Part shown: in pieces, positions 3,467 through 28,742 of the stretch
Layout: each line of letters opens with the position of its first letter
How positions within the stretch are numbered: the first letter of the stretch is position 1
Notes under the pieces: model-generated
The model's input: only the letters and a program-made list of their open reading frames with translations
Databases searched by the model: none
Told to the model about the DNA's origin: nothing
Origin: an uncultured archaeon
GTDB taxonomy: Archaea > Asgardarchaeota > Lokiarchaeia > Sigyniarchaeales > SOKP01
Reading direction: 5' to 3'
Assembly (NCBI GenBank): GCA_964447495.1
Contig: CAYUTF010000037.1
Location: 1-28,742 of the forward strand
DNA: 28,742 nt
Translations under genes and position numbers: made by a program

Positions 3467-4120
3467 CTATTCTAATAGATATTTCATAACTTGAAAGCCT
3501 TCAGCATAATCAACATTTACCTGCATCCCACGATATCTTGCTAAGCTTTTAACATCCTCAATCCACTTTTCTCCACCAAATTTATCGTATTCTGTCTTAT
3601 GATTTCTGATTGCATCACACTTTTTCTCAATATATTTTGAGATATCAATATAAGAATTTGGATTCATCAATCCTCCAGCATATTGAGAATACAATTCATA
3701 GACGATTACATTATTTATATATCTCCTAGCCGCAGCTAATGAAATAAAATGAGTATATATGTGATCTTGATGGTAAGTATCTGGATTAGAGTGAGTGAAA
3801 ATAATATTAATATTATTTGAAATAATTAATTTTTGTAGTTCTGAGATAATTTCCTTATCAATTCTCAGTTGAGTAGCTGGGACATTCGAAAAAAAAATAT
3901 TTTTGTGGTTAACACCTAAAGAAGATAAACTTTTTAATGTAGTCTCATAAATCTCTTCAAAGTCCCGAACTTTTTCATTATTTATATCAGAATATACTCC
4001 ATTTGTGGTATGATAACAATAAATTTCATATTCAGGCTTCTTTTCAACAAAATGGCAAATTGCTCCACCACATCCTAATTCTATGTCATCTGGATGAGCT
4101 CCAATAAATAATATTCCCAT
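3467..4120 (-). CDS. PIG-L/LmbE family N-acetyl-sugar deacetylase
   Basis: Metal motifs GAHPDDIELG and HQDH, plus C-terminal YAEGF. Start moved to the ATG at 4120 (MGILFIGAHPDD), which has GGAG upstream. Confidence 0.88.
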   Translation of the reverse strand: MGILFIGAHPDDIELGCGGAICHFVEKKPEYEIYCYHTTNGVYSDINNEKVRDFEEIYETTLKSLSSLGVNHKNIFFSNVPATQLRIDKEIISELQKLIISNNINIIFTHSNPDTYHQDHIYTHFISLAAARRYINNVIVYELYSQYAGGLMNPNSYIDISKYIEKKCDAIRNHKTEYDKFGGEKWIEDVKSLARYRGMQVNVDYAEGFQVMKYLLE

Positions 4121-4322
4121 TTTAAAATCTCCTAACTTATTATTCTTTATTATTAGGTAAATTGTTGATTTAATTTTCTTAAATGATATCTCCATTAAAA
4201 ATTTAACATAAAACTTGGCTAAGAAGTAGTAAAGAACAGATTGCTAATGATAAATTTTACTATGAAAAATATATTAAATATCATAATATAAATTATTTAG
4301 TTGTTAATAAAAAGGGTTTTTA

Positions 4323-7600: not shown

Positions 7601-7698
7601 ATAATTAAAGAGATAGTTTTTTGAAGATTCTATTATTGAATCTTATCATAATTAAAAAGAAAGGATATGGTTTTTTGAAAATTCTACTAGTGAATCCT
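7601..7698 (+). repeat. Imperfect tandem duplication of the leader and first codons of the radical SAM gene
   Basis: ataattaaag-agatagttttTTGAAGATTCTATTATTGAATCTT versus ataattaaaaagaaaggatatggttttTTGAAAATTCTACTAGTGAATCCT; 20 of 24 coding bases are identical. Confidence 0.6.
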
Positions 7699-9168: not shown

Positions 9169-9213
9169 ATCTCCTAAAAATATTCTATTTCTCTTTTATC
9201 ATCTAATATTTAC

Positions 9214-10173
9214 TTACTTATCAATTAGTTTTAATGCAAATATTTTAATTAAACTATGGCGGTGACCTCCATGGGTTAATAGTTGAAGAAGCCATCCGTA
9301 TAATCCTCTGACTTTTTCAAGAGGGATTTCTAATTTGAACTTTTGAAACAAAAAATTTAATTTTTTTATCAGTTTAAATAAAAGGCGATTAAAAAGAAGC
9401 GTTGGATTTCTATTACATAAAGATAGCATAACATTTGAGAACGTTAATGGATTACACCAAAGTTTAATTTTAATTGGAATAAATCCTGCTGTGGTTAGAA
9501 CTCTAAATAAAGATTTAGGTGTAAAAAATTGAAGATGGTCTCCTGGAGTCAACCAATTCCACTTGTTTCCAAATTTTAAAAATTCATAGCTTTCCATATT
9601 TGGACATTGAACGACTAATAAACCACCTGGTTTTATTACATATTTAAGTTTTGAGAGATATTCTACAGGATCTTTCAAATGTTCAAGAACATCCCACATT
9701 GTTGCAACATCAAATAAATTCTTATTCTTTTTATCTTCTAGAAAATTATCCGGTAAGATATTAATCCCAAAGATTTTTTTAGCCTTCTTTAAATTATTTT
9801 TATTGACATCATAACCGTATGGTTCAAAGCCAAAAAACGCAGCTGTATTTAAAAACAACCCGATACTACAACCGATATCTACCAATTTCCCGCCTCCCTT
9901 TACAATTCTACTTATTTCTTTCAATTGGTTTTTATAACGATTGGTAAGTTGATGTTGCATTCGAATTAAGAGTTTGTAATATGACTTCAAATTATAAGTT
10001 GAGAGATTTAATTCTTCAAAAACTGGAATATCTTTTGGATTTAAATTCAGAAATCCTAAACCGCATTTTCCACATCGTAGTATATCTCCAACTTCAGTTT
10101 TAACCCAAACACTAACACCTAAAGACGTTTCTCCACAGTGTGGACAATTCATACGTTCCGTAATACCGATCAC
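9214..10173 (-). CDS. Class I SAM-dependent methyltransferase with N-terminal zinc ribbon
   Basis: CPHC...CGKC, LVDIGCSIG, FDVATMWDVLEHL, KPGG and HLQFF. GTG start. Confidence 0.88.
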   Translation of the reverse strand: MIGITERMNCPHCGETSLGVSVWVKTEVGDILRCGKCGLGFLNLNPKDIPVFEELNLSTYNLKSYYKLLIRMQHQLTNRYKNQLKEISRIVKGGGKLVDIGCSIGLFLNTAAFFGFEPYGYDVNKNNLKKAKKIFGINILPDNFLEDKKNKNLFDVATMWDVLEHLKDPVEYLSKLKYVIKPGGLLVVQCPNMESYEFLKFGNKWNWLTPGDHLQFFTPKSLFRVLTTAGFIPIKIKLWCNPLTFSNVMLSLCNRNPTLLFNRLLFKLIKKLNFLFQKFKLEIPLEKVRGLYGWLLQLLTHGGHRHSLIKIFALKLIDK

Positions 10174-10306
10174 TTTTTTTGCTTAAATTTTTGTAGTGTT
10201 TATTCTATAGAACATGCATTATTATTTAATAAAACTTGTTGATATATAAGCTAGTTTATATATTTTAAAAGAAAGGGAATTTTTCTTTAAACTTAAAGAG
10301 CTATGT

Positions 10307-10873
10307 TTAATTTATTTTTTGATAAATTCTATTTTCTACAATTTGTTTATACCTATTATCTCTTTTAACTAAATTATCTACAATCAATTTAATTTGGGGT
10401 GTATCTATTTGTTCTTTTGTATAGAGCTCAGCAGTATGAGTGAAATTTACTGGAGGATATGGAGAACAAGAGGGACTCTTTGCGATAGTCCAGTTATAAT
10501 CATCAAATTCTATATAGCCATTGATTTCTAATAATTTATCAACTAAATAAAAGCATAATCCATCAATTGTAAGATCATGGGAACCATCTAAATAAACATA
10601 GTCAAACAATTTCTTCTTTGATTTTGATATAAGTTTTATCAAATCCCAATTATAATTTTGCTTTATTACTCCATATATCTTGACTTTAAATTTATTACCA
10701 TATTTATCGATGATTTTTTTAAAAACATTCTCTACTTGAGCCTTAAAATCGAACAAATAAATAGTTGATCCCTTTTCCAAAAATTCACATACTTTTAAGA
10801 CGGTATTTCCTTCGGCTATTCCGATTTCTGCATATTTTTTCGGCATGCATTTGTTAATGAAACTTAACGACAT
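10307..10873 (-). CDS. Class I SAM-dependent methyltransferase (Methyltransf_24-like)
   Basis: AEIGIAEG, FDYVYLDGSH and GYIEFDD. Confidence 0.82.
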   Translation of the reverse strand: MSLSFINKCMPKKYAEIGIAEGNTVLKVCEFLEKGSTIYLFDFKAQVENVFKKIIDKYGNKFKVKIYGVIKQNYNWDLIKLISKSKKKLFDYVYLDGSHDLTIDGLCFYLVDKLLEINGYIEFDDYNWTIAKSPSCSPYPPVNFTHTAELYTKEQIDTPQIKLIVDNLVKRDNRYKQIVENRIYQKIN

Positions 10874-11015
10874 TATATTTAGCTATTAAAAAAAATAAAT
10901 TTAAATATTTGGAAAAAATTTTGCGTTTTAAATTTCAAAATTTAAATTAAAATGAATTAGTGGTTGGTTTGGGATTTTCCCACATATTTACATAATAAAG
11001 CTTCTAATCTTTTAC

Positions 11016-11409
11016 TTAACAAAAGAATAAAATATGAGATAACGTATCATTTGTGAAGAGCATTTCTATGTATTCTAAATCACTTCTCATGAATGTCTTA
11101 AACACAATATTTACCAGAAGAAAAATAATAATGAAAATTAATAAATTTAGTAAATTGAGATGTTTAAAAATAGTCAAATTAGAATTTATCCAGAATTGAT
11201 AACTTAAATCGTCATATATAAAATTTCCTAATATAAACAATTATAGCAATAAAGAAAGCTAGATATTGAAAGATCATTTTATAAAAACCCAAACGAATTT
11301 TTAATAGTTTCGAAGTCAAAATTAATTCACAAATAAGCAGAATTGAATTAACAATTATTATTACGATAATGATACCATAAATTCCGAAATTAATGAGCCC
11401 AAATAAAAT
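11016..11409 (-). pseudogene. 5'-truncated, frameshifted remnant of an oligosaccharide flippase, paralogous to 15612..17258
   Basis: One frame gives ILFGLINFGIYGII...LLICELILTSKLLKIRLGFYKM...FFIA. After a frameshift near 11240 it gives FIYDDLSYQFW...IFKHLN...DLEYIEMLFTND. Both align with the intact flippase C-terminus (FTGLIYFGIYGM...LLITEIGLTIKILKINLEYRKM; IFEHLN; DLDYIEMLFTKD). Confidence 0.88.
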
Positions 11410-11443
11410 GTATCAAAGAAAATTATTATTTCATAAAATAATA

Positions 11444-12280
11444 TTATTTCCTCTTCTTTACAATAATTCCAATACCACCCCAATTTTGATTCCAGTCCTC
11501 AACTAGTTCTTTACTAACAAACTCATTTTTAATTTCATTCCACAACTTATTTACTTCGCAATTTGATTCTGGGGGATGGATTACGATATCGTGGAAAGCT
11601 ATTAAACCATTTTCTTTAACTAAATTACTATATAATCTAAAATCTCTTTTTATTCCGAGATATGTATGATCTCCATCAATGAATAAAAAATCCAGTTTAT
11701 TATTTTTTAAAATTCTTTTTACTTTTTTTAAAGTTGCGGATTTATGAGAATCATTACGAATAAGCGTAATTCTACGAGGTGAGGACGCGAATGCCTTGTA
11801 TATTGGTATCTTCCATTCAGGATACCCTCCCCCATGAGATCCCCCTGGTAAATCAATACTAATTATTTTTGCATTTTCAGATGCAACTTGAGAAAATAAA
11901 AATAATGTCGCTCCAGCATAAGTTCCAATCTCTAAAATATATTTTGGTTTATTTTCTTTTAGTATTTTTAGTAACCCGGCGATTTCACTACGTAATTGGG
12001 AAGGTTTGATAAAAAATTTTTTATTATATAAGGCAAAATCTATGATTTCTTCAAAATTTTCTTTATTTTTAATTGAATTTATAGAATATATAAATTCCCT
12101 TTTATATTCTCTTAAAGAGTATGCTTCCTTTAATAAATTTTGAATAATATTTTTTATTATAAATGTAAATCTACCTTTTAGTAGTCCAGGCAATTCATTT
12201 CTAATATTTTTTATTAGATTACCGTTTTTTAATGAAAAAAACCATTCCTTAATTTTTCTTATAAAGTAATTCATAAACAT
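11444..12280 (-). CDS. Class I SAM-dependent methyltransferase (Methyltransf_24 type, probable sugar O-methyltransferase)
   Basis: ILEIGTYAG, IISIDLPGG, LDFLFIDGDHTY, GLIAFHDI and GGIG. Confidence 0.88.
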   Translation of the reverse strand: MFMNYFIRKIKEWFFSLKNGNLIKNIRNELPGLLKGRFTFIIKNIIQNLLKEAYSLREYKREFIYSINSIKNKENFEEIIDFALYNKKFFIKPSQLRSEIAGLLKILKENKPKYILEIGTYAGATLFLFSQVASENAKIISIDLPGGSHGGGYPEWKIPIYKAFASSPRRITLIRNDSHKSATLKKVKRILKNNKLDFLFIDGDHTYLGIKRDFRLYSNLVKENGLIAFHDIVIHPPESNCEVNKLWNEIKNEFVSKELVEDWNQNWGGIGIIVKKRK

Positions 12281-12470
12281 AATACAATATCATTTAAAAT
12301 AAAAGATCGGATTTAATATGTACCATACCAATAGTGTTCTATATTCCTTAATCATAATTTTGACTCATTGTGTCAGATAAGCTTTTATTGAGATTTATAT
12401 TATCTTAAATCAAAACATTCAATAATCTACATCTTGAACCTTTTTTTCAGAACAATTGAAGTGGATTAAA

Positions 12471-13469
12471 TCAATTCTTCAAATTTAATAATTGGATTTT
12501 ATTTTGCATTTCTTTAATAAAATGATAATCTCTAATAATTATATTTTTACATGATTGATTAGTTCTTCTTTTGAGACCTATTCTAAAACCTTGGAGCAAT
12601 GAATGTAGCTGTAAATATCTTAAATATAAGTCTCTATTTTTTAATATTCCTAGAAACGATCGAAAATTCTTTAATAAAAATCTACAATAAAAAATTAATA
12701 AATCTATATAAGTACCATGTTTCCATACAAAAATTTGCCTGTTTCTATTGAAAAAATATTGTTGGAATATATTTCTATTTAAGTTTCGAGTAATATTATG
12801 ATATACCGTAGTAGTAGGTACATAGTAATTATTAAATCCATTTCTTTTTGCTCTTATATTCCAATCAGTTTCTTCGAAATACATGAAATATATTTCATCC
12901 AATAAACCGATTTTCTCCGTAATACGTTTTCTTAAGAATAATACGGTCCCCGCTGTGTAATCCGTAAGTGATATTTTGTTATACTTTTCATTTTTAGTTT
13001 CCTTTTCCCATATTCCTTTAGGTTTTGCTACATATGAACTTCGAATATTTATCTCACCCCCCCCATAGTACATGTAATTCTTATTTCGATAAATTCTGAT
13101 TTTTGGTGAGATCATTCCAGCATCTTGATTATTTTCCATAAATTCAACCAATTTCTCAATCAAGTCAGGTTCTACAATTGTGTCGTTATTTAACAGACAA
13201 ATGTAATCCCCCGTTGCTATTTTCATACCTTTATTATTTCCACTAGCAAAATATAAATTATACTCGTTTCGGATCAGCAAAATTTTCAAATAATTTTCAA
13301 ATTGATTAAGTTCTTTTTTTAATTTTAAATATAGATTCTTTTTTGAACCATTATCAACGAGAATAACTTCAATATTCTTATAAGTTTGTTGTTGCAGTGA
13401 TTTTAAACATTCAAGAGTATAGTTATATTTATTATAATTCAAGATTATAATTGATACTAATTTTTCCAC
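12471..13469 (-). CDS. Glycosyltransferase family 2 (rhamnosyltransferase-like)
   Basis: VSIIILNYN, VILVDNGS, FASGNN, LLNNDT, GLLDE.YFMYFEETDW and VYH. GTG start with GAGG upstream. Confidence 0.9.
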   Translation of the reverse strand: MEKLVSIIILNYNKYNYTLECLKSLQQQTYKNIEVILVDNGSKKNLYLKLKKELNQFENYLKILLIRNEYNLYFASGNNKGMKIATGDYICLLNNDTIVEPDLIEKLVEFMENNQDAGMISPKIRIYRNKNYMYYGGGEINIRSSYVAKPKGIWEKETKNEKYNKISLTDYTAGTVLFLRKRITEKIGLLDEIYFMYFEETDWNIRAKRNGFNNYYVPTTTVYHNITRNLNRNIFQQYFFNRNRQIFVWKHGTYIDLLIFYCRFLLKNFRSFLGILKNRDLYLRYLQLHSLLQGFRIGLKRRTNQSCKNIIIRDYHFIKEMQNKIQLLNLKN

Positions 13470-13491
13470 GCAGATTTCCTCTTATTGTTTA

Positions 13492-14322
13492 TTATTTTGC
13501 TTTTTCCAAACTAAAAATCAGAAATGTGAAATCTAAATTGAATTTTCTCCATTTTACTACTTTATTTTGGCATTTAAGATCAATTTCAGGACCGAATAAA
13601 ATAAATCCTTGTTTTAAAGCTTTTTCTAATAAATTTTTGACAGAATTTTTATTATATATATAAATAGGATTATTATATGCTAATCCATTAGTTCGGTCTA
13701 ATTCATTTTCCCAGTAATCCATCGAAGTGATCAATAAACCTCCCTTTTTAAGAATTCTATACATCTCTTTAAAATATTTAATTTCATCAACACCATGTTC
13801 GATTACACTAATACAAGTAATTGCATCAAAATAATTATTAGGAAAGGGGGTTTTGGTTAAATTACCAGGAAAAAATTCGATATTTCCTCTTTTAATTCGT
13901 TTATTAAACGTTAAGTTTAAGCAATTTAAATTAGAATACCCTAATTGGTAAAGCCAATGGAGAATTAATGAAGTTTGCTCACCACCGGCATCTAAAATAA
14001 CTGCTGATCTGGCTATATTTTGTGTTATTAGATTTAATGCAATTAATGAATCCCAATTCTTTTCAGGAATATTAGGATGAAGTTTTAAATTAGAATTCTC
14101 AATAATTTTAATTGCAAGCCTTAGCTCATCTTTGGTTTTTAAATTAGTATTAAACCATGGTACTCGAGAAGTGAGATTTAAGTTAAATCTTAATCCTTCA
14201 ACTAATCTGAGATAAATTTTATAAAATAAATTATATCGTAGAAGATATCCCTTTTCAATTTTAATGAGATACTTTTCATAAATAATATTAATTTTTGAGC
14301 GTAAACACTTTAATCTCATCAA
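13492..14322 (-). CDS. Class I SAM-dependent methyltransferase (Methyltransf_11-like)
   Basis: ILDAGG, PFPNNYFDAITCISVIEHG and EMYRILKKGG. Confidence 0.85.
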   Translation of the reverse strand: MMRLKCLRSKINIIYEKYLIKIEKGYLLRYNLFYKIYLRLVEGLRFNLNLTSRVPWFNTNLKTKDELRLAIKIIENSNLKLHPNIPEKNWDSLIALNLITQNIARSAVILDAGGEQTSLILHWLYQLGYSNLNCLNLTFNKRIKRGNIEFFPGNLTKTPFPNNYFDAITCISVIEHGVDEIKYFKEMYRILKKGGLLITSMDYWENELDRTNGLAYNNPIYIYNKNSVKNLLEKALKQGFILFGPEIDLKCQNKVVKWRKFNLDFTFLIFSLEKAK

Positions 14323-15611: not shown

Positions 15612-17258
15612 TTACCTTAAAAACTTTTTAAGAACGTTTATAAGCTTTTTAATAAATTTATGAGTTGTTTTGTCTTTTGTAAATAGCATTTCTATATAAT
15701 CCAAATCTCTTTTGCTAAAACTTTTAAAAATTATATTTAAAACAACAAATATAATTGTAAAAGAAAGGAGATTAAAGATATTGAGATGTTCAAATATCGA
15801 AAGATTAAATAAAGACCATAATTGTTTACTTACTTCATCAAATAGTAAATAATTCAGAGTTATAGTGAGTAAAACCGCAACGAAAAAGGAAAAAAACAAA
15901 GCAACCATTTTCCGATATTCTAAATTAATTTTCAAGATTTTTATTGTCAATCCGATTTCGGTAATTAGAAGTAATATATTAATTAATATTATTGCATAAA
16001 GCATACCATAGATCCCGAAATAAATCAATCCAGTAAAAACAAAAATAACATTGATTGGGAATGAAATCATCGTCAGTTTTGCTAAAAGTTTTATTTTATT
16101 GGTAGTTCTTAATAAAATTCCAAAGAGAGAAGGATAAATGCTAATAACACTAGAAATTTGCATCAACTTGATTATTGAGGCATATTGAACATAAATATCA
16201 CCGTAAACAAAGCTTAGGAAAAATTCAGAGAGAAAGAAGAAAATCCCAGTTAACAACAAAAAGAGATACAAAGAATAATTAAGAATAGTCTTAAACATTC
16301 TCAATATTTTATCATAATCTTCTTTATAATCAAGAGTTGAAAATGAGTAAATTAATGGGCTAGTTATTGAACTTAAAAATAAGTTAGCAATATGAGTGTA
16401 ATTTCTAGAGATATTATAACCCGTGACTATTTCGCTACTTTCAAAACCTCCAATTGCTTGAGTTTGAGTCTCTCTCCATAAATCAGAGATAAGATTTTCA
16501 ATTCTGAAAAAACTTCCATATTTTATAGTTTTTCTAATGACTTTAGTAAAGCTTAAACCATTTTCTCGTTCAGATTCTAATTTAGGTATTTTTAAAATGA
16601 AAATAAAAAATTCAGCGATTAAAGGTAATATCAAAGAGATGACATTAATCAATGCTATTGTTTCAATTGTAATACTTTTAACGATAAAAAAGTAAAATAA
16701 TAATGGTATTAGATTAGAAAAAGCCTTTATTATAAAAAATAATAAATTAGTTTTAAATAAATTAAAGCCAATAAGAAACGCACTAAAATAACTATCCAAA
16801 TTACTTAATATAATAAGTAGAGATAATATGTATAATAATGTAAGATGATCCTTTAGAAAATTAGCAAAATTGGAATTAAATATCCCAAAAATGATCATTG
16901 CTATAGAAAAGATAATTACAATTCCTAAGGTTCTCAAATAAAAGGTCTTTAAAATGAAATATTTAAGTTTAGTTTGTTCATTATTCGCTCTATACCGCGG
17001 AATATAAAAATTCATAGCAAAAATTGTACCGGGTGGTAAAAAATTAACTAATATTGAAAAAATTCCAATAACGGAAGTAGCCAGAATCAGAATACCCCAT
17101 TCATCTCTTGTAATCATTCTCGCAAAAAGATACGATGTTACTAATGAAATAATGAAAGTACCATAACTCAGAAAAATAGAAAATAGAGTATTTTTGACGA
17201 GAGTTTTGTATCGAGAATCTAGCTTTCTGTGGTTTCCTGAAGAATTAGGTTCTTCCAT
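15612..17258 (-). CDS. Oligosaccharide flippase (Wzx/MOP superfamily)
   Basis: Many hydrophobic segments, LVKNT...FARMITRDEWG N-terminus and VTGYNIS. It sits directly downstream of rmlD and has GGAG upstream. Confidence 0.85.
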   Translation of the reverse strand: MEEPNSSGNHRKLDSRYKTLVKNTLFSIFLSYGTFIISLVTSYLFARMITRDEWGILILATSVIGIFSILVNFLPPGTIFAMNFYIPRYRANNEQTKLKYFILKTFYLRTLGIVIIFSIAMIIFGIFNSNFANFLKDHLTLLYILSLLIILSNLDSYFSAFLIGFNLFKTNLLFFIIKAFSNLIPLLFYFFIVKSITIETIALINVISLILPLIAEFFIFILKIPKLESERENGLSFTKVIRKTIKYGSFFRIENLISDLWRETQTQAIGGFESSEIVTGYNISRNYTHIANLFLSSITSPLIYSFSTLDYKEDYDKILRMFKTILNYSLYLFLLLTGIFFFLSEFFLSFVYGDIYVQYASIIKLMQISSVISIYPSLFGILLRTTNKIKLLAKLTMISFPINVIFVFTGLIYFGIYGMLYAIILINILLLITEIGLTIKILKINLEYRKMVALFFSFFVAVLLTITLNYLLFDEVSKQLWSLFNLSIFEHLNIFNLLSFTIIFVVLNIIFKSFSKRDLDYIEMLFTKDKTTHKFIKKLINVLKKFLR

Positions 17259-20722: not shown

Positions 20723-23700
20723 TTAGATATTATTATTTCTAAATATCGTTAAATTCTTGTAGATATACAATGTTTCATTAAAGTGTTCAGGTATAAGGAC
20801 ATTCCATATATCTACGTAGTTATTAGCTCTTTCTTGATATTCATTGCTCTCATCAGATAGGATAAGATAATAGAACTCATTAATTCTCAAATAATCAAAA
20901 ATAGTCAAATAAGTAAATAAGCAATATTCATATTTATAGTTAGGATTCCAAGAAAAAGTAAAATCCTTAAGGTAAATAGAATAACCTGAATCGGGATCCA
21001 AAGTATACATATTGAGAGATGTAATTCTAGTTATGTTATTTTGGAAAAAGTAGGGACCATAATCTGTATCATTAATTACCATTTTCCATTGGTAATCACC
21101 TAAACTTGGGTAGTATTCAGATTCTGCATTAAAAATTATTCTTATTTCGTACCATAGGTTATTCGAAATGTTCATAACTTTTTGATAAAAACTACCGTTG
21201 TAACCATAAATAGCATTAGCTTCCACTTTTATAGCAATAGCTACAAGGTAAGAACCCGTTCCAAAATTAATATTAAAGATGTTAGACGCATTTGAGGTTT
21301 GAATAGAAAAATTGATTATTCCATAGCTCCTATCTGAATTAAAATAGGTTAAAACAGACACATTTTCATTATTATTGCTATCATTAATTTCGATCACATC
21401 TTCTGATCCCTTATAGGAATGATAATATTCAATACTACAATTAGGAGCAAGATTTTTGTAGGTGGTCCAAATATCAATTTCTTTATCTGCAGCTTCAATT
21501 GTCTCATCAATCAAATACACATTTACTTTAGCTATGTCATCAAGAAATTTATATAACTGGCCCCCATCAACAAGAATATTAGAATTGCGAGGTAAATTTT
21601 CCGATACCCATCCTGATATTTGAGCCTCCTCATCATTTATGACTTTATAACCATGATTATTTATCAACATACCAGAGATAATAGTATTTGAAAGGCAAAA
21701 AAAAATCAATACTGATACACCAAACCATTGACCTGATTTTCCTCTAAAACCTTTTAATTTAACTCTTCCAGCTTTTTTAACATAGGCTCTAAACTCAATA
21801 ATACCGATACTTGCTAAAATACTGAGAGGAATTATGGAATAATGCCATAATCTGTCAAACCAATAATATGAAGTCCCCAAACTCTTTCCTGGAAGAGTTA
21901 GAGGATTTGAAAAGGGATTACTTATCCAGTATAAAAAAAACACACCTAAAGCGGAAATAAAAGTAATAATAAACCAATTGAATAAAATATAGGTTAATCT
22001 CTGATCTTTCTTATAGGTAAAATAAATTAAATATATGGCGGTTATTCCTATAAAACCTATATAAAAAAAAAAAAGATGAAGAAATAAGGTAAAAAAGTAA
22101 AGGTCTCTTAAGGTCCTGATAAGATTTAAGAAAATGTCTAAAATGAAAAATCCTGTGAAAACTAAAAGCAATATCTGTAAGAGAAATTTGCTTGGTTTAA
22201 ACTGAACTTTTAGAACATGCAATTTTCTCAGTTTTTGATAATACTTAACAAATAGAACATATGTTATGATAAGAATGGTAAATAATAGTAAATAGATCAT
22301 AAATGCATTATAAAGAAGCCTTATGAAAAAACTCGAACTATCAATAATTAAATTAATCTTAAAGAAATAATTCAAGCGTGCCATGGCAGACCAACTAAAA
22401 AAGAAGTTATAAACCAAATCGAAAACCAAAAAGAACATGAAAAAGATGAAGAAACAAACGAATGCATGTAAAATTGTTTTTTGTCTATTAGGAGAAAAAA
22501 TAATCATAATAAAGATATAAATTACTGCGGGAATAATGGGTAGGAAATAAATCATGAAGCTTTGAATTAAAAAGTAAGTACCGATAATTATAAGACTCAA
22601 TTCTTCAGATTTGAATAATTTTTTTGCATTTATTATATTAGAACTTTTAAAAGTAGTCGTTATCAAGGTGATTGATAAAAAAAATAAAATGATTGCAAAT
22701 CCTTTATAGCGGAAATTGAATATGGCATCAAAAACAAACATCGAAACGTTCTCATATGCATTTACAGATTGATAAATATAAAATAGACTAGAAAAACTAA
22801 CGGTGAGAATTGTTGCGAGGATCGCAAATTTTTCCTGGAGTGTATTCAATAATGATTTCATGAATAGATATACGGAACAAATGAATAAATAGATGAAAGG
22901 AAACATCATTGCACCGATATTCATGACGGGAATACCACTTAAAGAGCTAAAACTAAAAATTATATAACTCCAATATATTGCATAGGTATAAAATTTATCA
23001 TTGGGAGTGGTATCCACCTTCCCAATATAGTTAGTATAATTAGAAGCCCTGCACGCGTCTAATCCGAATAAATATTTCGTGAACAATTGAATACTTAAAG
23101 CAATTATTATGATAGCGATTGCCATATAAATAATAAAGGCTGTGTTTCTCGATACTTCTATACTGTTTAATTCAATTAACGATTTTATTCTATTTCTACG
23201 TATCTCAATGATAACTCTTAGAATATATAGTGATATTAATATTAAGAACAGTGATATAGAGAAATAATCTCTTAACAGTCCTAACTGATCAAGAATTAAT
23301 GATACACTTCCAAGAAAACAAAATGAGAGGACCGGATATAAAATTATTTTGAGAAAGAAAGGTTCGACCTTTAATTTTCTATGAAGAGTCATGTTGGGAT
23401 AAAATATCTTGATAAGGCAAGAACCTGGAATGAATGCACTTCCAAGTAAAAATACAACCGCTCTAAAAACATTCAATGCAGACACTTGATGCCAATCTAT
23501 TGCCATTTGAGAAAAAGTTATTGGAGCAATATTGAATGTGATGATCATTAACACTATTATGATAAGAAAAATTGCCTCTTCGTTTGTAAATTGAAATTTA
23601 AATGAGCTTTTTTGATGGTCTGTATTTGAAGGATATCGGAAAAAATAAAAAATTCCAATTATAAAGAGTGCAAAACCAATTAATAGAATAATGGGAACAG

Positions 23701-23806
23701 TTGCAGAAGAGGGAAGATATATTGTCAAAAATATGAAATAAATTACAAGAAGTGAAAGGAATAAAAATGATTTCCAAAATAAAGATCGAACTTTGAAGCT
23801 TTTCAT
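20723..23806 (-). CDS. Large polytopic membrane protein, GT-C-like, with an extracellular beta-rich, sequon-rich C-terminal region
   Basis: About 700 aa of repeated hydrophobic segments, then E.QISGWVSENLPRNSNILVD and a soluble tail with 11 N-x-S/T sequons. The function is inferred. Confidence 0.6.
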   Translation of the reverse strand: MKSFKVRSLFWKSFLFLSLLVIYFIFLTIYLPSSATVPIILLIGFALFIIGIFYFFRYPSNTDHQKSSFKFQFTNEEAIFLIIIVLMIITFNIAPITFSQMAIDWHQVSALNVFRAVVFLLGSAFIPGSCLIKIFYPNMTLHRKLKVEPFFLKIILYPVLSFCFLGSVSLILDQLGLLRDYFSISLFLILISLYILRVIIEIRRNRIKSLIELNSIEVSRNTAFIIYMAIAIIIIALSIQLFTKYLFGLDACRASNYTNYIGKVDTTPNDKFYTYAIYWSYIIFSFSSLSGIPVMNIGAMMFPFIYLFICSVYLFMKSLLNTLQEKFAILATILTVSFSSLFYIYQSVNAYENVSMFVFDAIFNFRYKGFAIILFFLSITLITTTFKSSNIINAKKLFKSEELSLIIIGTYFLIQSFMIYFLPIIPAVIYIFIMIIFSPNRQKTILHAFVCFFIFFMFFLVFDLVYNFFFSWSAMARLNYFFKINLIIDSSSFFIRLLYNAFMIYLLLFTILIITYVLFVKYYQKLRKLHVLKVQFKPSKFLLQILLLVFTGFFILDIFLNLIRTLRDLYFFTLFLHLFFFYIGFIGITAIYLIYFTYKKDQRLTYILFNWFIITFISALGVFFLYWISNPFSNPLTLPGKSLGTSYYWFDRLWHYSIIPLSILASIGIIEFRAYVKKAGRVKLKGFRGKSGQWFGVSVLIFFCLSNTIISGMLINNHGYKVINDEEAQISGWVSENLPRNSNILVDGGQLYKFLDDIAKVNVYLIDETIEAADKEIDIWTTYKNLAPNCSIEYYHSYKGSEDVIEINDSNNNENVSVLTYFNSDRSYGIINFSIQTSNASNIFNINFGTGSYLVAIAIKVEANAIYGYNGSFYQKVMNISNNLWYEIRIIFNAESEYYPSLGDYQWKMVINDTDYGPYFFQNNITRITSLNMYTLDPDSGYSIYLKDFTFSWNPNYKYEYCLFTYLTIFDYLRINEFYYLILSDESNEYQERANNYVDIWNVLIPEHFNETLYIYKNLTIFRNNNI

Positions 23807-23993
23807 TATTTTATAAGGCTATAATGAATTTTGAATATCTAAAAATTCTTATTATTTTATCTTATCTTTTAATATTTAAAAAACTATTAATATTATCCAA
23901 ATTATTAAAAAACTCGTCTAAACCTATTTCTATCAATATTCTTAAATCATATAATAATTTATAATTATTACTAAATTTTCTACATTGATTTCT

Positions 23994-25043
23994 ATGGGTA
24001 AAATTAAAATTGGAATCATAGGGATTGGCAATTGTGCTAGTGCTTTAATTCAAGGCATAGAATACTATCGAGGATCGAAAAAAGAAGGACTATTACGATC
24101 AACTTTAGCGGGATATAAAATATCAGATATAGAGGTTGTTGCAGCAATTGATGTTTCAAAAGATAAGGTTGGAAAGGATCTATCTGAAGCAATATTAGAA
24201 AATGATTTAGATTTAATGGTAGAATTTCAAGAAGCTTTTAATGTAAAAGTTGAAATGGGACAAATTCTTGATGGGGTCATTAATCAAACGCAAAATAAGA
24301 TTAATCCCGCAGATCAAAAATCAATTGACCTCTCCGAATATTTCATATCTAAGGGTGCGGAAATGATTTTATGTCTTTTACCTTCTGGCGCAGATAATGC
24401 TGTTAGATTTTATGCCAATGAAGCTCTAAAAGCAGGCTGTGCTTTTATTAATGCCACACCTACAAATGTAGCAACTGATACAGAATTTGCTAAAAAATTT
24501 TATGATAAAGGGCTTCCATTAATAGGAGATGATTTGCAAGATCAATTTGGAGCAACTATTTTGCATAAAATGATTCTACAACAAATGCTTGATAGAGGAG
24601 TCAATATAAAAGAAAGTTATGCTCTTGATGTAGGAGGGGGCTCAGAAAGTTTAAATACCATATATCGAACACGAGAAAGAAAGCGAAAAATAAAAAGTAT
24701 GACTGTTGCAGGAGCATTGAATATTAGTGCTCCAATAGTTGCAGGAACTTCTGATTGGGTTGAATTTTTAGGAAATAAAAGAAATACCATGCTTTGGATT
24801 GTAGGAGAGGGATTTATGGGCTCTGAAGTTATTATGGATATTAAAATTCAAACCGAAGATGGTCCGAATGGGGGATCTGTATTAGCAGATGTGATTCGTG
24901 CTACGAAAATAGCGTTAAGTCAAGGCAATGCTGGTCCAATCAATGAAATTTCAGCATATGGGTTTAAAAATCCACCAAAAGCTCCAAAAAATCCCAGTGA
25001 AGCCAGTAGAGATTTAGCAAATTTTATATTAGGAATAATGTAA
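23994..25043 (+). CDS. Inositol-3-phosphate synthase paralog with divergent active-site motifs
   Basis: IGIIGIGNCASALIQG, FINATP, IGDDLQDQFGAT, LDVGGGSE, EDGPN and FKNPP. Confidence 0.85.
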   Translation: MGKIKIGIIGIGNCASALIQGIEYYRGSKKEGLLRSTLAGYKISDIEVVAAIDVSKDKVGKDLSEAILENDLDLMVEFQEAFNVKVEMGQILDGVINQTQNKINPADQKSIDLSEYFISKGAEMILCLLPSGADNAVRFYANEALKAGCAFINATPTNVATDTEFAKKFYDKGLPLIGDDLQDQFGATILHKMILQQMLDRGVNIKESYALDVGGGSESLNTIYRTRERKRKIKSMTVAGALNISAPIVAGTSDWVEFLGNKRNTMLWIVGEGFMGSEVIMDIKIQTEDGPNGGSVLADVIRATKIALSQGNAGPINEISAYGFKNPPKAPKNPSEASRDLANFILGIM

Positions 25044-25046
25044 GAA

Positions 25047-25051
25047 GAGGT
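25047..25051 (+). promoter_or_regulatory. Shine-Dalgarno motif GAGGT
   Basis: Located in the 14-nt gap between the two MIPS genes, 6 nt before the ATG at 25058. Confidence 0.65.
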
Positions 25052-25057
25052 ATATAA

Positions 25058-26194
25058 ATGAGTGATAATAAAGAAATTCGGATCGCTATCGCAGGTCTTG
25101 GAAATTGTGCTTCAGCACTGGTTCAGGGCATTGAATATTATAAAAACATTAAAGAGGAAGATATGTATATAAATGGATTAATGAATCCTAGTATCGGTGG
25201 ATATCTCCCCCGCCATATAAAAGTGGTTGCTGCTTTTGATATATCTGAGAGAAAGATCAATAAGGATATCTCGGAAGCGATATATGAAGAGCCTAATTGT
25301 TGTCAACATATTATCAATCCAGAAGATATGCCAAAAACGGGTGCGTTATGCTATCCTGGACCCATTTCAGATGGATGTTACAAAAATGAGGATCATTCAA
25401 TATCAACCTATGATTTTTTTAAAGCCTATGATGATACCAAAGTAAAACCAGTTGATGTTGCTCAAATTCTAAGAGAAAATAACGCAGAGATTTTGATTAA
25501 TATTATACCCGTAGGCAGTTATGAAGCGTCCCGAATCTACGCTCAAGCAGCACTCGATGCAGGATGTGGGTTTATAAATGGGATTCCTGAATTTATCGTG
25601 TCTGAACAAGTTGAAGGTGATAAAGATTGGGCAACAGAATTCAAGACCAAGGGATTACCATGTGCTGGTGATGATATTAAATCTCAAGTTGGTGCAACTA
25701 TTGCCCATAGAGTGTTAACTAAAATGTTCTTAGACAGAGGAGTAGTTGTAAATAGCACATATCAGTTAAATATCGGAGGGAACGGGGATTTCTACAATAT
25801 GAAACTTGAAGATCGGTTAACAACTAAACGTAAATCGAAAACTTCGGCAGTTACTTCAGTCTTACCATATCCAATTAAATGTCGCATTGGACCAAGTGAT
25901 TATGTTCCCTTTCTGGGAGATAAAAAAATATGCTACATTAGAATTGATGGTGTTACTTATGGTAATTTACCTTTAGTTTTAGATTTAAAAATTCGGGTAG
26001 AAGATTCACCAAATTCAGCAGGGGTTATGTTAGATATTATTCGTGTTATGAAACTCGCATTGGATCGGGGTATCGCCGGACGCTTAGAAAGCATAAGTTC
26101 TTTCTGTTTTAAACATCCACATATACAACCTCCTTCAGATGTAACGGCAAAACAATGGGTTACTGAGTTTATTGAAAGAAAGCGTGAACGATAA
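25058..26194 (+). CDS. ino1: Inositol-3-phosphate synthase (MIPS), canonical motifs
   Basis: GLGNCASALVQG, GDDIKSQVGAT, YQLNIGGNGDF, KRKSKT, DKKICY, EDSPNSAG and FKHP. Confidence 0.95.
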   Translation: MSDNKEIRIAIAGLGNCASALVQGIEYYKNIKEEDMYINGLMNPSIGGYLPRHIKVVAAFDISERKINKDISEAIYEEPNCCQHIINPEDMPKTGALCYPGPISDGCYKNEDHSISTYDFFKAYDDTKVKPVDVAQILRENNAEILINIIPVGSYEASRIYAQAALDAGCGFINGIPEFIVSEQVEGDKDWATEFKTKGLPCAGDDIKSQVGATIAHRVLTKMFLDRGVVVNSTYQLNIGGNGDFYNMKLEDRLTTKRKSKTSAVTSVLPYPIKCRIGPSDYVPFLGDKKICYIRIDGVTYGNLPLVLDLKIRVEDSPNSAGVMLDIIRVMKLALDRGIAGRLESISSFCFKHPHIQPPSDVTAKQWVTEFIERKRER

Positions 26195-26263
26195 TTATTT
26201 TTAATTATGTATTTTTCTTAGATTATATATTATATTCAATATTAACTATGGTTTGATGCTACT

Positions 26264-27043
26264 TTGGAAGGTATAATTTTAGCCGCAGGATTCTCTTCTC
26301 GATTCAATTTTGATGATCATTCATTTAAGAAATTTCTTTTACCTCTCAAGAAAACTATTATATTGAATTATGTGATTACCGCTATGTATCATGCGGGAAT
26401 TAGAACAATTAATATAATTGTTGATGAAATGGTCGATAAATCAAATTTAATAAATTGTTATTACGATTTTTGTAAGGAGACTAATTTAAGTACTATAGAT
26501 TTGTCGATTAATTTGATTGAAAATAAATATTCAGAACGAGAAAATGGTTATAGTTTATTTTTAGGAGTAAGTACTGTTAAATCTTCGAGTTTCATGCTTT
26601 CTATGGCAGATCATATTTTTTCTGACAACATCTATGAAATATTAATAAAGAATTATCGACAAGAAGATGTATTATTAGCTACAGATCCAATGAAGATTAA
26701 GGGTATTTACGATTTGGACGATTGCACCAAAGTCTTTGGAAAAGAGCTTTCCATTAAAAATATAGGAAAACAAATCCCTAAATATAATAGGCTTGATATG
26801 GGGGTTTTTATCATGAAGAGAAATCCAATAATAAAAATTTCTGATGAAATTGAAGCATCTAATCATAAATTCGGAGTTTCCGATATTGTAATTTCTACTA
26901 TTAAATCAAATTTAAAAGTTTCATATTTTGATTTTCCGCATACTATTTGGGTAGATGTGGATAATGATTTTGAATATGCTAAATTAAAAGAAAATTTTGG
27001 TAAATCAAACAAACTAAAACCCTTTAATTTGGATATTATCTAA
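26264..27043 (+). CDS. Inositol-phosphate cytidylyltransferase (IPCT-like NTP transferase)
   Basis: GIILAAGFSSR, ERENGYSL, MADHIF, D..TKV...IGK, DMGVF and WVDVD resemble archaeal IPCT. It lies directly downstream of MIPS. TTG start. Confidence 0.8.
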   Translation: MEGIILAAGFSSRFNFDDHSFKKFLLPLKKTIILNYVITAMYHAGIRTINIIVDEMVDKSNLINCYYDFCKETNLSTIDLSINLIENKYSERENGYSLFLGVSTVKSSSFMLSMADHIFSDNIYEILIKNYRQEDVLLATDPMKIKGIYDLDDCTKVFGKELSIKNIGKQIPKYNRLDMGVFIMKRNPIIKISDEIEASNHKFGVSDIVISTIKSNLKVSYFDFPHTIWVDVDNDFEYAKLKENFGKSNKLKPFNLDII

Positions 27044-27093
27044 TTACTCCATTTAAGAGGTTAGAATATTAAAAAGAAAGAAAATTACCTTCA

Positions 27094-28320
27094 TTAAATA
27101 ATATTGAGAACCTTTAATAGTCTTTCTGTAGAATTACCATCAACATATTTGTGAAACAAGTTTCTTGTTTCTAATCTCCTATCTTTATATTTTTTATCAA
27201 TTTCATCGATATTTTTTACTGCATCGATTAATTCTCTTCCTGTGTATATTAATGGACCTGGTGCTATTTTCTCAAAATTATAATAGAATCCTCGTCCCTT
27301 TTCCATAAATTGTTTAAAATCATAAGTGAAGAATAAAATTGGTCTGTTTAATAATAGAAAATCGCAATACACGGAAGAATAGTCAGTAATTAAAAGATTT
27401 GTTAAATATAATAGTTCTTGGATATCTGCATTTTGAGGTGCTCTCCTTATATTAGAATAGTCTTTAAAATTGACAACCTTTTCAAACATATGAGCTTTCA
27501 TTATCAAGAATGACTTTGATGCTTTTAATAAGTTATTTAATTCTACTAATTCATCTTTAGATAGGGGGAATTTAGCCGTAAAATTATTATCTCGAAATGT
27601 TGGAGCATATAATATTATTCTTTTTATTTCGTTGTCTATCTTATATTTATTTCTTAGATTTGTTTTAAATTTAGGAGTTTCATTAAAAAGAATATCATTT
27701 CTTGGATATCCCGTGCTTAGAATTTTTCTTGGAGAAATTTGAAAATAATTTACAATAAGTTTTTTATCTTTCTGAGTACCAGAAGGAGTAACAAAATAAT
27801 CCATATAATCTTCATTCACGATTTTTAATTTACATAATTTAGCAAACTTATTATACTCAATCGGGCCATGAGAGGTTTGATTTCTTTTATTTTGAACTCC
27901 ATGCCACGTACATACAAATATAGTATCGGGAGAGAAATCAATAGGTAAGACATCAAAAACTCCATGGGTGGTAAAAATGAATTTTGCTTTTCGTAATAAT
28001 CTAATTGTCATCAAGCTGAATTTATTAATCACTGTGTACCCTTTCGCATTAAGTTCTTTTAATAAATTTTGAGATGAGGTAATGATTATCGGCTTATACT
28101 CTGTATTTTTCTTTAAATATAAAAATATATATTTAATATTATCTATGAATGCATTTCCACCGTAAGTACTTAATAGTATTAACTTATCATCTACATCATC
28201 ACTGTAGAATCTGGAAAAAATTTTAATTACTGAGGAGTATAAGATTTCTTGAAAAAATTTATACATCTTAGTAGTTTTTATAAAATCTACTTTTTTAAGG
28301 AGGTTATTAAAAACTTTCAT
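27094..28320 (-). CDS. CDP-glycerol:glycerophosphotransferase family protein (TagF/TagB-like)
   Basis: DNIKYIF, TWHG, TGYPRND, ILYAPTFRD, KAH, LITDYSSV..DF and DGNSTER. Confidence 0.92.
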   Translation of the reverse strand: MKVFNNLLKKVDFIKTTKMYKFFQEILYSSVIKIFSRFYSDDVDDKLILLSTYGGNAFIDNIKYIFLYLKKNTEYKPIIITSSQNLLKELNAKGYTVINKFSLMTIRLLRKAKFIFTTHGVFDVLPIDFSPDTIFVCTWHGVQNKRNQTSHGPIEYNKFAKLCKLKIVNEDYMDYFVTPSGTQKDKKLIVNYFQISPRKILSTGYPRNDILFNETPKFKTNLRNKYKIDNEIKRIILYAPTFRDNNFTAKFPLSKDELVELNNLLKASKSFLIMKAHMFEKVVNFKDYSNIRRAPQNADIQELLYLTNLLITDYSSVYCDFLLLNRPILFFTYDFKQFMEKGRGFYYNFEKIAPGPLIYTGRELIDAVKNIDEIDKKYKDRRLETRNLFHKYVDGNSTERLLKVLNII

Positions 28321-28325
28321 TATAA

Positions 28326-28742
28326 CTAAACCAATTTCTTTTTTGTTTCAATTAAAATATCTTTAATTATTTTTGATAAATCATCTTTACTTTTCTTTAT
28401 AGAAAAAAGGGTATAAAGATCCTGAACGTCATCATTTGTGATAACTGGAGGTTTCTCCACTACTTCTTCAATCATATTTTTCCATAGAGATAATTTTAAT
28501 GGTACTTCTTTTAAAAATTCTTTATTAATAAAAAAGGAATTGGCTCCGCAGTTTGGCGAGACTATTACTGGGGTTTTGTTTGCAATACTTTCAATAATAA
28601 CTCTTCCGAAAGCCTCAGTGTAAAACGACGGGACAAAAGTTATTTGTGAATCACGATATAATTTATCTAATTCATTTTTATTAACATGACCAATATTAAT
28701 GATTTTATGTTTCATAGATGCTATTTTATCAGTTTCTATTAT
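28326..28742 (-). CDS. Glycosyltransferase family 4, C-terminal part; 5' end lies outside the window
   Basis: PSFYTEAFGRVIIESIANKTPVI (Ex7E motif). The frame stays open to the window edge, and the stop lies 5 nt before the TagF-like start. Confidence 0.85.
   Translation of the reverse strand: MIETDKIASMKHKIINIGHVNKNELDKLYRDSQITFVPSFYTEAFGRVIIESIANKTPVIVSPNCGANSFFINKEFLKEVPLKLSLWKNMIEEVVEKPPVITNDDVQDLYTLFSIKKSKDDLSKIIKDILIETKKKLV

Follow-up and report, generated by a model that had tools for sequence, protein, structure and literature searches.

Wall-teichoic-acid synthesis relies on phosphotransferases of the TagF/TarF/TagB/TarL type (PF04464), which use CDP-glycerol or CDP-ribitol as donor and are served by TagD or TarI/TarJ. 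The TagF-like capsule polymerases of Gram-negative bacteria (Cps3D, 8QOY), for which the donor is CDP-glycerol, carry a glycosyltransferase domain in the same protein and make alternating sugar–polyol-phosphate chains. In the di-myo-inositol-phosphate (DIP) pathway, MIPS, IPCT and DIPP synthase (DIPPS) act together (NF041135; structures 4MND, 2XME and 4JD0) and CDP-inositol ends in the solute DIP. For a Bacteroides vulgatus-type gene cluster, PMC9246714 proposes that MIPS and an NTP-transferase provide CDP-inositol in a non-thermophile, and it cites Jorge et al. (2015), with their Rhodothermus pathway, for CDP-inositol as a known donor of lipid head groups. In a full-text search that left most subscription journals outside its reach, so that absence is unproven, we found no link between CDP-inositol and TagF-type enzymes or between inositol phosphate and teichoic-acid repeats.

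We analysed a stretch of 28,742 nucleotides, here called the window, from a Promethearchaeota (Loki-type) MAG. The genes of interest (Table 1) form the edge of a surface-glycan island, and the remainder of the window holds dTDP-rhamnose genes, GT2 and GT4 genes, methyltransferases and a Wzx-like flippase. The layout given in the preliminary description is borne out: a MIPS-like, a MIPS and an IPCT-like gene end 50 nt from a convergent TagF-like gene, and by ORF coordinates the GT4 gene lies 5 nt upstream of the latter. Over its last 2112 nt the window is identical to a metagenome contig (L103), on which the GT4 gene has its full length of 403 aa with the GT4 domains present. L103 joins contig C134 across a 405-nt gap. 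Domain scans of the window ORFs gave no match for CDP-OH_P_transf, CTP_transf_like or IspD. The earlier statement that no CDP-alcohol transferase is fused or adjacent holds, and it extends to all 16 loci of the IPCT group described below, none of which has such a gene within 5 kb.

Table 1. Genes and spacer at the edge of the surface-glycan island (window coordinates).
Feature	Position	Strand	Size and supporting match
MIPS-like paralogue (MIPSa)	23985-25043	+	352 aa; PF01658 58.5 bits
Canonical myo-inositol-1-phosphate synthase (MIPSb)	25058-26194	+	378 aa; PF01658 105 bits and PF07994
IPCT-like CTP:inositol-1-phosphate cytidylyltransferase	26264-27043	+	259 aa; NTP_transf_3, NF041135 IPCT half
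Convergent intergenic spacer, IPCT-like stop to TagF-like stop	27044-27093		50 nt; ORF coordinates
TagF/TarF-family phosphotransferase	27094-28320	-	408 aa; PF04464 Glyphos_transf 240.5 bits
GT4 glycosyltransferase, runs off contig	28326-28742	-	C-terminal 138 aa; PF00534

The coupling of a TagF-like gene to a glycosyltransferase inside a surface-glycan locus recalls the wall-teichoic-acid systems. In contrast to these, the host is an archaeon, its genome has no TagD, and MIPS and IPCT take the place of TagD or TarI/TarJ as neighbouring donor genes. The MIPS gene adjoins the IPCT-like gene as in the DIP pathway, but DIPPS is neither fused nor adjacent, and the DIPPS-like genes of a sister clade of IPCT loci have no orthologue in this genome. 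MIPS together with an NTP-transferase is also proposed for CDP-inositol-dependent lipid synthesis, but there a CDP-alcohol phosphatidyltransferase uses the CDP-inositol to make a lipid, whereas the conserved neighbour in the window is a TagF-family enzyme. The locus departs from the Cps3D type by encoding TagF and GT4 as two proteins and by its presumed donor, CDP-inositol.

We read the locus, with a probability of roughly 60%, as encoding a putative inositol-phosphate transferase that uses CDP-inositol and modifies a surface glycan, with the donor cassette placed beside its transferase. The identity of the genes and the conservation of the catalytic motifs and of the IPCT–TagF neighbourhood are shown, whereas what the IPCT-like enzyme activates, the donor and acceptor of the TagF-like enzyme and the product are inferred. 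MIPSb, possibly with MIPSa, would convert glucose-6-phosphate to L-myo-inositol-1-phosphate, from which the stand-alone IPCT-like enzyme would form CDP-inositol with CTP. The TagF-family enzyme may then use CDP-inositol to place inositol phosphate on a hydroxyl of a lipid-linked glycan, with release of CMP and formation of an inositol-phosphodiester linkage. The GT4 would supply or extend the sugar acceptor of the TagF-like enzyme, and the product could be a single decoration or an alternating sugar–inositol-phosphate chain.

The PF04464 match of the TagF-like protein covers the full domain (profile positions 5–364 of 367) and lies far above the curated cut-off of 22.1 bits; TagF of S. epidermidis (3L7M) matches at E 2.7e-31 and the capsule polymerase 8QOY at E 4e-22. 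The scores with the NCBIfam equivalogs, however, all stay far below their cut-offs (TarF 156 against 550, TarL 94 against 1000, TarB 59 against 500). Both catalytic histidines are present, His140 within a TWHG motif and His277, each aligned to 3L7M; the second aligns with Ala in the mutant chain 3L7M and with His in 3L7I. They are at least 90% conserved across a 55-row family alignment, and we take them to be the counterparts of His444 and His584 in the S. epidermidis enzyme. The protein has the size of the short TarF/TagB forms and consists of the catalytic GT-B region only. The N-terminal part found in the 729-aa TagF is missing, and neither a predicted TM segment nor a hydrophobic 19-mer is found in it. 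No other PF04464 gene is present in the genome. The IPCT-linked TagFs fall into two separate parts of a TagF tree built by a quick method, and the TagF family alignment contains no residue that is exclusive to them.

The two MIPS genes differ in their motifs. MIPSb matches TIGR03450 at 354 bits and M. tuberculosis Ino1 (1GR0) at 310 bits, and it keeps every motif checked against this reference, namely GDD-x-KSQ, N-x-DF, SKT, SD and DSPNSAG. MIPSa, which has 349 aa when read from ATG 23994, the form given in the database copy P0125, matches Ino1 at 212 bits and is without those catalytic motifs. The conserved Lys-Ser of GDD-x-KSQ is gone, and GDDLQDQFGAT, GG-x-ESL, IKS, AGTSD and DGPNGG are found instead, as in 8 of 8 orthologues. 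This motif change is also present in wider archaeal relatives, and on sequence grounds MIPSa is a member of an archaeal MIPS-related subfamily. Eight genomes of the family (G046, G050, G061, G070, G053, G049, G022 and G032) contain the MIPSa/MIPSb pair without a nearby IPCT or TagF. As a general Asgard module, the pair is not specific to this locus.

The evidence for a connection between IPCT and TagF comes from related genomes. The IPCT lineage, defined by E<1e-40, occurs in 38 of 135 genomes of the family and in none of 265 other genomes of the phylum. Its tree, built by the same quick method and with a root that rests on a very long outgroup, contains a clade of 31 rows (SH-aLRT 99) in which a CDP-OH_P_transf gene lies within 5 kb in 27 cases and TagF in none. 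The other 16 rows, which comprise 10 family genomes including that of the window and 6 metagenome loci, show the opposite picture: 12 of them have TagF within 5 kb and none has CDP-OH_P_transf. Although the loci come from related genomes, are not independent and include the near-duplicates L015/L097 and L099/L100, this difference shows that chance does not account for the pairing. TagF is absent from this distance in two contigs shorter than 4 kb (L018, L023), in the metagenome contig L101, and in G026, where TagF lies 14.5 kb off in the same island. The two genes are convergent in the window and in L015, L016, L022, L097 and L098, their ends overlap in L020, and a double or fused TagF accompanies IPCT in L017, L021, L099, L100 and L102. 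PF04464 is present in 10 of 10 genomes with the TagF-linked IPCT group and in 30 of the 125 others of the family. The neighbourhood that the preliminary description had seen in a single genome is thus conserved among relatives. MIPS and IPCT also occur in 18 relatives that have no TagF match, which counts against the idea, although these belong to the separate IPCT clade with DIPPS-like genes. The partners in that clade match the DIPPS half of IPCT/DIPPS best (c7 with 126 bits, c10 with 62 bits), and MIPS lies within 5 kb in 24 of its 31 loci, which ties the IPCT lineage to CDP-inositol; in the TagF-linked group only 9 of 16 loci have a MIPS at this distance. A fused IPCT–TagF protein was not found, as 3 of 3 long matches were IPCT–CDP-OH fusions, and this absence is weak evidence.

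A further comparison is offered by one chromosomal slot, beside RNase PH, PheA and PheRS, at which different genes flank TagF. MIPS-MIPS-IPCT is found there in the window together with C134 and in G098. In G065, TagD takes this place, convergent with TagF and about 100 nt apart, and in G073 it is a convergent 460-aa IspD-containing frame, which we read as a fused TarI/TarJ. A PepM-Ppd-FeADH-NTP-transferase cassette also flanks TagF, in one case at the same slot. These PepM cassettes of the same archaeal family resemble the genes of the window as presumed CMP-activated head-group cassettes beside TagF, but their head group, with PEP mutase, TPP decarboxylase and Fe-ADH, is a phosphonate and not inositol phosphate. 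In this comparison the MIPS-IPCT genes appear as one exchangeable donor cassette among several. Some 9 of the roughly 15 TagF loci at the slot lack a recognisable donor cassette in their vicinity, so that TagFs of the family are evidently able to use donors encoded elsewhere.

This last observation would also fit two unrelated pathways that merely lie side by side, an explanation we consider unlikely. CDP-inositol from MIPS and IPCT would then pass to a lipid or solute via an AIPS-like (archaetidylinositol-phosphate-synthase-like) transferase, in keeping with its known role as lipid head-group donor, and TagF would use CDP-ribitol or CDP-glycerol, the latter from an unrecognised source. The genome does contain three AIPS-like CDP-alcohol transferase paralogues (C6, C149, C53). 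On contig C123 a TarI-like gene (IspD, 88.6 bits) is followed by an SDR, and a ribulose-phosphate 3-epimerase (Rpe) and an SDR lie inside the window itself, which makes CDP-ribitol a possible donor in this genome. Against this stands, apart from the split between the two IPCT groups, that the transferases partnering IPCT in relatives have no orthologue here: the best match to c7 is a housekeeping paralogue with 31–37% identity, and c10 gives 0 of 13 matches. Of 5 genomes that show no match to IPCT, 4 have an orthologue (55–61%) of this C149-type housekeeping paralogue. The TarI-like gene of C123 is without a close counterpart in the relatives with orthologous TagF, of which G098 (69%) and G011 (57%) are the closest. 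IspD (E<=1e-12) and TagD (at cut-off) each occur in only 3 of 135 family genomes, so that G098 and G011 have neither, and the IspD copy of G096 is only 31% identical. A family-wide scan for TagD (E<=1e-15) gave no match in the genome of the window. TIGR01518 (TagD) reaches at most 34 bits, against a cut-off of 165, on the PF01467 proteins scanned (C149, C84), and the three PF01467 matches of the genome are of FAD-synthetase/heptose type, PPAT and NMNAT type. The genome search for other donors and for DIPPS that the preliminary description had proposed thus found no TagD and no c7 or c10 orthologue, but did find the TarI-like/SDR pair. For the original idea that TagF uses CDP-inositol, this pair and the general nature of the MIPS module are a weakening, while the comparative genomics strengthens it.

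Cooperation of the two enzymes with an activated phospho-alcohol other than inositol phosphate, so that a different group is transferred, is quite improbable. The question turns on the IPCT-like protein, which stands alone without a DIPPS domain. Among the NCBIfam models it best matches NF041135, which describes bifunctional IPCT/DIPPS, and does so over the IPCT half (97.7 bits, profile 1–211), far below a cut-off of 580 that is set for the fused enzyme; the runner-up family reaches only 36 bits. For NT11, a different, unrelated transferase that adjoins other TagF genes, the top match is likewise the IPCT model (83 bits). According to PMC12275187, the fold family includes cytidylyltransferases reported with phosphocholine, phosphoglutamine or phosphoglycerate as substrate, and the active-site Arg, Lys and Asp of the T. 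maritima IPCT are R16, K26 and D112. In the window protein the Asp of an SMADH motif falls on GD in the alignment to 4JD0, and an N-terminal AAGxxSR with a following Lys is present, in a stretch that is not structure-aligned and with an unverified offset to the T. maritima numbering. At seven of the 16 loci MIPS is missing within 5 kb; yet the MIPS pair is adjacent in the other nine, and L017 retains a 45-aa MIPSa remnant between TagF and IPCT. The PDB sequence matches are IPCTs only (4JD0, 2XME, 4MND), and the core motifs agree with those of the sister clade linked to DIPPS and MIPS, the two groups sharing 75 strongly conserved columns and differing at 6.

That the two genes are neighbours without functional meaning, both sitting in a variable glycan island dense in transferase genes and the pattern reflecting the shared ancestry of a few related, partly near-identical genomes of one family, is very improbable, since the pair stays together in at least three gene orders while the surrounding genes differ, a random gene would lie within 5 kb of TagF in about 0.3–1% of cases (a rough estimate for 1–4 TagF in genomes of 2–5 Mb), and the sister clade is never found in such islands beside TagF.

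If CDP-inositol is indeed the donor, the donors of the TagF family would widen to a class that is undescribed for it, and to the two fates of CDP-inositol, the solute DIP and inositol lipids, a third would be added. The cassettes exchanged beside related TagFs (TagD, TarI/TarJ, phosphonate, inositol) are a good starting point for asking what fixes donor specificity. As a more tentative suggestion, some Loki-type Asgards may possess a teichoic-acid-like anionic surface polymer with inositol phosphate in its repeat, made by TagF-family enzymes that use CDP-inositol; in the relatives with a double TagF, these could act as a primase-plus-polymerase pair, with export by a TagGH-like ABC-2 transporter. 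Asgard archaea are the closest known prokaryotic relatives of eukaryotes, and the proposed function would provide a concrete, testable prediction on their almost unknown cell-surface chemistry.

The window is the entire contig C37 of genome G000 (3.81 Mb, 223 contigs, 31% G+C), which the names of close database homologues assign to Promethearchaeota/Lokiarchaeia within the Asgard archaea. The final 4.8 kb of the window contain five genes: a MIPS-like gene (MIPSa), a canonical MIPS gene (MIPSb), a gene for an IPCT-like protein, a TagF-family gene and a GT4 glycosyltransferase gene. The preliminary description placed the first three on the plus strand, ending 50 bp from a TagF-family gene that is coupled to a GT4 gene within a glycan locus, and open reading frames and domain matches bear this out. 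The absence of a CDP-alcohol phosphatidyltransferase and of TagD/TarI that it reported for the window also holds, as domain scans find no open reading frame of the window matching these families or IspD. The remaining window is a surface-glycan island with dTDP-rhamnose genes, GT2, GT4, several methyltransferases, a B12-radical-SAM protein, a Wzx-like flippase and a PIG-L-family deacetylase.

Features of the window with their positions on contig C37
Feature	Position (nt)	Strand	Remarks
Ribulose-phosphate 3-epimerase	1777-2400		inside glycan island
PIG-L-family deacetylase	3467-4195		weakly BshB1-like; inside glycan island
B12-binding radical-SAM and methyltransferase-domain genes	7621-14322		interspersed with GT2/GT4 genes
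Wzx-like gene	15612-17258
1027-aa protein	20723-23806	-
MIPS-like gene, MIPSa	23985-25043	+	349 aa with ATG 23994 as start
Canonical MIPS, MIPSb	25058-26194	+
IPCT-like, stand-alone NTP_transf_3 protein	26264-27043	+	top NCBIfam match IPCT half of IPCT/DIPPS, 97.7 bits; next family 36 bits
Convergent spacer, IPCT-like/TagF-like			50 nt
TagF-family gene	27094-28320	-	PF04464, 240 bits
GT4 gene			5 nt upstream of TagF-like; runs off contig

The contig break at 28742 lies inside the GT4 gene. The final 2112 nt of the window recur unchanged in metagenome contig L103, which spans the whole GT4 gene (403 aa) and runs on into C134, another contig of G000, bridging an assembly gap of 405 nt. Past GT4, the next gene encodes a 383-aa sugar dehydratase/epimerase of the SDR type, and genes for RNase PH, chorismate mutase/prephenate dehydratase and PheRS come after it. 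The island therefore ends with the TagF-GT4 operon, and the MIPS-like, MIPS and IPCT-like genes are the only donor-synthesis genes adjoining it.

Within the island, at least five methyltransferase-domain genes accompany the B12-binding radical-SAM gene, so the glycan is probably heavily methylated. Divergent from MIPSa, with 178 nt between them, lies a gene whose 1027-aa product has about 19 hydrophobic segments and ends in a soluble portion of about 300 aa. Neither Pfam nor the related loci clustered yield a match to this protein, a possible glycan polymerase or membrane enzyme of the ligase type. The ribulose-phosphate 3-epimerase and the deacetylase likewise have no counterpart among these loci. 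A GPI- or mycothiol-like pathway, with GT4 as an MshA/PIG-A-type enzyme acting together with the deacetylase, is rejected because full-length GT4 has no MshA-type top match and the deacetylase is only weakly BshB1-like and unconserved in related loci.

The TagF-like protein (408 aa, no hydrophobic 19-mer) aligns to S. epidermidis TagF with an E value of 2.7e-31. Both catalytic histidines are present, one in the TWHG motif and the other at the position replaced by Ala in chain 3L7M. Its best model is TarF, though far below cut-off. For the IPCT-like protein, the only PDB sequence matches are 4JD0, 2XME and 4MND, all of them IPCTs. A different transferase (NT11) also takes the IPCT model as its top match, and other substrates are reported for enzymes of the IPCT fold (PMC12275187); both points weaken the case for CDP-inositol.

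Among the 135 family genomes searched, 38 carry close relatives of the IPCT-like protein, at 41 places in all; at E<1e-40, none is found in 265 genomes from the rest of the phylum. All 40 other family places were compared together with 12 metagenome loci, six of which carry full-length close relatives. In a tree calculated by a quick method, whose rooting depends on an outgroup with a very long branch, 31 rows form a clade with a long stem and SH-aLRT support of 99. Within 5 kb, members of this clade have CDP-OH_P_transf in 27/31 and MIPS in 24/31 cases. The partner is a 209-aa or a 452-aa form, for both of which the DIPPS half of IPCT/DIPPS is the best match (126 and 62 bits). These loci (L024-L054) show a split IPCT adjoining a DIPPS-like CDP-alcohol transferase, usually with MIPS; the 209-aa form adjoins a xylose-isomerase-like TIM-barrel protein and the 452-aa form has an unannotated N-terminal half. 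In its gene set, this sister clade corresponds to a pathway of the DIP or CDP-inositol-lipid type in these Loki-type archaea.

The other 16 rows, which include the window and are best regarded simply as those outside the DIPPS-linked clade, have MIPS within 5 kb in 9 cases and CDP-OH_P_transf in none. The preliminary description proposed to examine whether IPCT and TagF stay neighbours in related genomes, and they do: TagF lies within 5 kb in 12 of these 16 rows versus 0/31 in the sister clade. Distinct loci among these 16 rows number nearer 13 or 14 (L097 and L015 are near-identical, as are L099 and L100). The four rows lacking TagF are two contigs shorter than 4 kb, family genome G026, whose island has TagF genes starting at a distance of 14.5 kb, and a single metagenome contig. 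The counts leave out L103, which is the window itself, and L104, a partial IPCT-like gene with a TagF fragment that is not in the tree; L122, L123 and L125 repeat arrangements counted already. PF04464 is present in 10/10 family genomes of the TagF-linked group versus 30/125 others. The IPCT-TagF pair occurs in several arrangements (convergent, overlapping, across the MIPS pair, with single or double TagF) and has therefore stayed together while the gene order changed. Both IPCT groups have 75 columns conserved at ≥85% in each in common and only 6 such columns that differ, which argues for the same chemistry in both. Common motifs include SMADHIFS, LATDP, D-x-TK, IGK, YNRLDMG, FGV and W-D-D.

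Could CDP-inositol be consumed by a DIPP synthase encoded elsewhere, or could the TagF-like enzyme receive another donor? The proposed genome search for DIPP synthase, tagD and tarIJ finds no TagD and no orthologue of the sister-clade DIPPS-like partners, and it does find a TarI-like/SDR pair. G000 contains four PF01066 genes, one archaetidylserine synthase-like and three archaetidylinositol-phosphate synthase-like (on C6, C149 and C53), all below cut-off. With the 209-aa DIPPS-like form, the only match in G000 is the paralogue on contig C149 (31-37% identity); with the 452-aa form, there are 0/13 matches in G000. Because orthologues of the C149 paralogue occur in 5/5 genomes tested at sites other than the IPCT-linked gene (56-65% identity) and in 4/5 genomes without any IPCT match (55-61% identity), this CDP-alcohol transferase is independent of the IPCT lineage. 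The three PF01467 genes are of the FAD-synthetase/heptose type, PPAT and NMNAT type; the two proteins scanned for TagD (on C149 and C84) reach ≤34 bits against a cut-off of 165, and a family-wide TagD scan returns no G000 match at E≤1e-15.

The one real PF01128 match in G000 is an IspD/TarI-like gene on contig C123 with an SDR gene behind it; the other proteins of their operon are unannotated. This co-directional operon (L092: 764-6027) encodes 426-, 219- and 191-aa proteins without Pfam matches, a 113-aa ORF, the IspD/TarI-like protein, the SDR and a 376-aa protein without Pfam match, and it may constitute a CDP-polyol pathway with an unrecognised transferase. With this pair, and with Rpe and SDR in the window, CDP-ribitol is possible in G000, where the window's TagF-like gene is the only PF04464 gene, and this weakens the case for CDP-inositol. 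However, IspD matches are missing from the relatives whose TagF is orthologous. The operon has no close counterpart in the family, where G096 alone has a second such IspD-like gene, 31% identical and with none of the flanking genes in common.

Of the three PF01658 genes in G000, two lie in the window and one on C86. MIPSb scores 310 bits and keeps every motif compared with M. tuberculosis Ino1. MIPSa scores 212 bits against Ino1, with several motifs replaced, for example GDDLQDQFGAT for GDD-I-KSQ-x-GAT, in 8/8 orthologues. Conceivable roles for MIPSa are those of a variant enzyme, of a partner subunit or of a regulator. MIPSa belongs to a wide archaeal MIPS-related subfamily with Q, M or L in place of the Lys of GDD-x-K, which spans Asgard lineages, Nitrososphaeria and a Methanomethyliaceae MAG (loci L110-L121, L128, L133, L136-L161); many Loki-type members reach about 395 aa and have a helix-turn-helix extension at the N-terminus. 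Within the family MIPSa is nearly always in tandem with canonical MIPS, and the two cultured Loki-type genomes have a MIPSa-type gene without MIPSb within 6 kb. The pair occurs in 19/135 family genomes, in 8 of those without nearby IPCT or TagF, and a contig scan of MIPS-like gene neighbourhoods outside the family finds no adjoining IPCT or TagF. The pair is a module in its own right; this and the membership of MIPSa in a wider subfamily lacking the motif Lys weaken the case for CDP-inositol use by the TagF-like enzyme.

The IPCT-linked enzymes fall into two groups of the TagF tree. One consists of the window, L015 and L016 (SH-aLRT 87), and the second lies inside a 12-row clade (SH-aLRT 100), of which 8 rows come from genomes with the TagF-linked IPCT group. 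The TagF alignment reveals no inositol-specific signature among columns common to both groups yet rare elsewhere. D128, N297 and F345 are ruled out as specificity residues, as they also occur in TagFs without IPCT; F345 is common to TagD- and TarI/TarJ-linked TagFs and S. epidermidis TagF. A Rosetta-stone search for longer relatives of the IPCT-like protein returns three matches, all IPCT-CDP-OH_P_transf fusions, and no TagF fusion. That neither a fused IPCT-TagF protein nor a common specificity residue is found weakens the case, as do the many family TagF genes without donor genes nearby.

The use of CDP-inositol by the TagF-like enzyme, as first suggested, agrees with the neighbourhood comparison. 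We consider the most likely mechanism, with a probability of roughly 0.6, to be a three-step route in which glucose-6-phosphate would be converted to inositol-1-phosphate, inositol-1-phosphate to CDP-inositol, and inositol phosphate would then be transferred by a TagF-type reaction onto a glycan built with the coupled GT4. We found no precedent in the searchable literature. A polymer as product is hinted at in relatives by double TagF genes and an ABC-2 transporter pair; the window has a single TagF gene and the Wzx-like gene in place of this pair. The TagGH/Wzm-Wzt-like permease and ATPase are seen in L015, L017, L021, L063, L078 and L083 and have no orthologue in G000, where the best ATPase matches are 34-35% identical.

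Of the 135 family genomes, 40 have PF04464, three have a TagD that reaches the cut-off and three have an IspD match at E≤1e-12. TagF islands of some relatives (L016, L017, L065, L072, L076) also carry genes for ATP sulfurylase, APS kinase and a sulfotransferase-family protein, which suggests sulfated glycans there. About 10 TagF genes adjoin a phosphonate cassette (L058, L061, L062, L065, L067, L071, L073, L075, L080, L087) made up of a PEP mutase/NTP-transferase-domain fusion, TPP decarboxylase, Fe-alcohol dehydrogenase and a 243-aa NTP transferase, which predicts phosphonate-decorated surface glycans in these archaea. In the slot beside RNase PH, PheA and PheRS, TagF is found with TagD (G065, convergent, ~100 nt apart), with a convergent 460-aa IspD-containing frame (G073), with the phosphonate cassette (L058), with a lone NTP-transferase (L081), with nothing recognisable flanking it (~9 loci), and with MIPS-MIPS-IPCT in the window and G098. 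This slot reads as a site of swappable head-group cassettes beside a TagF-family transferase, MIPS-IPCT being one of them.
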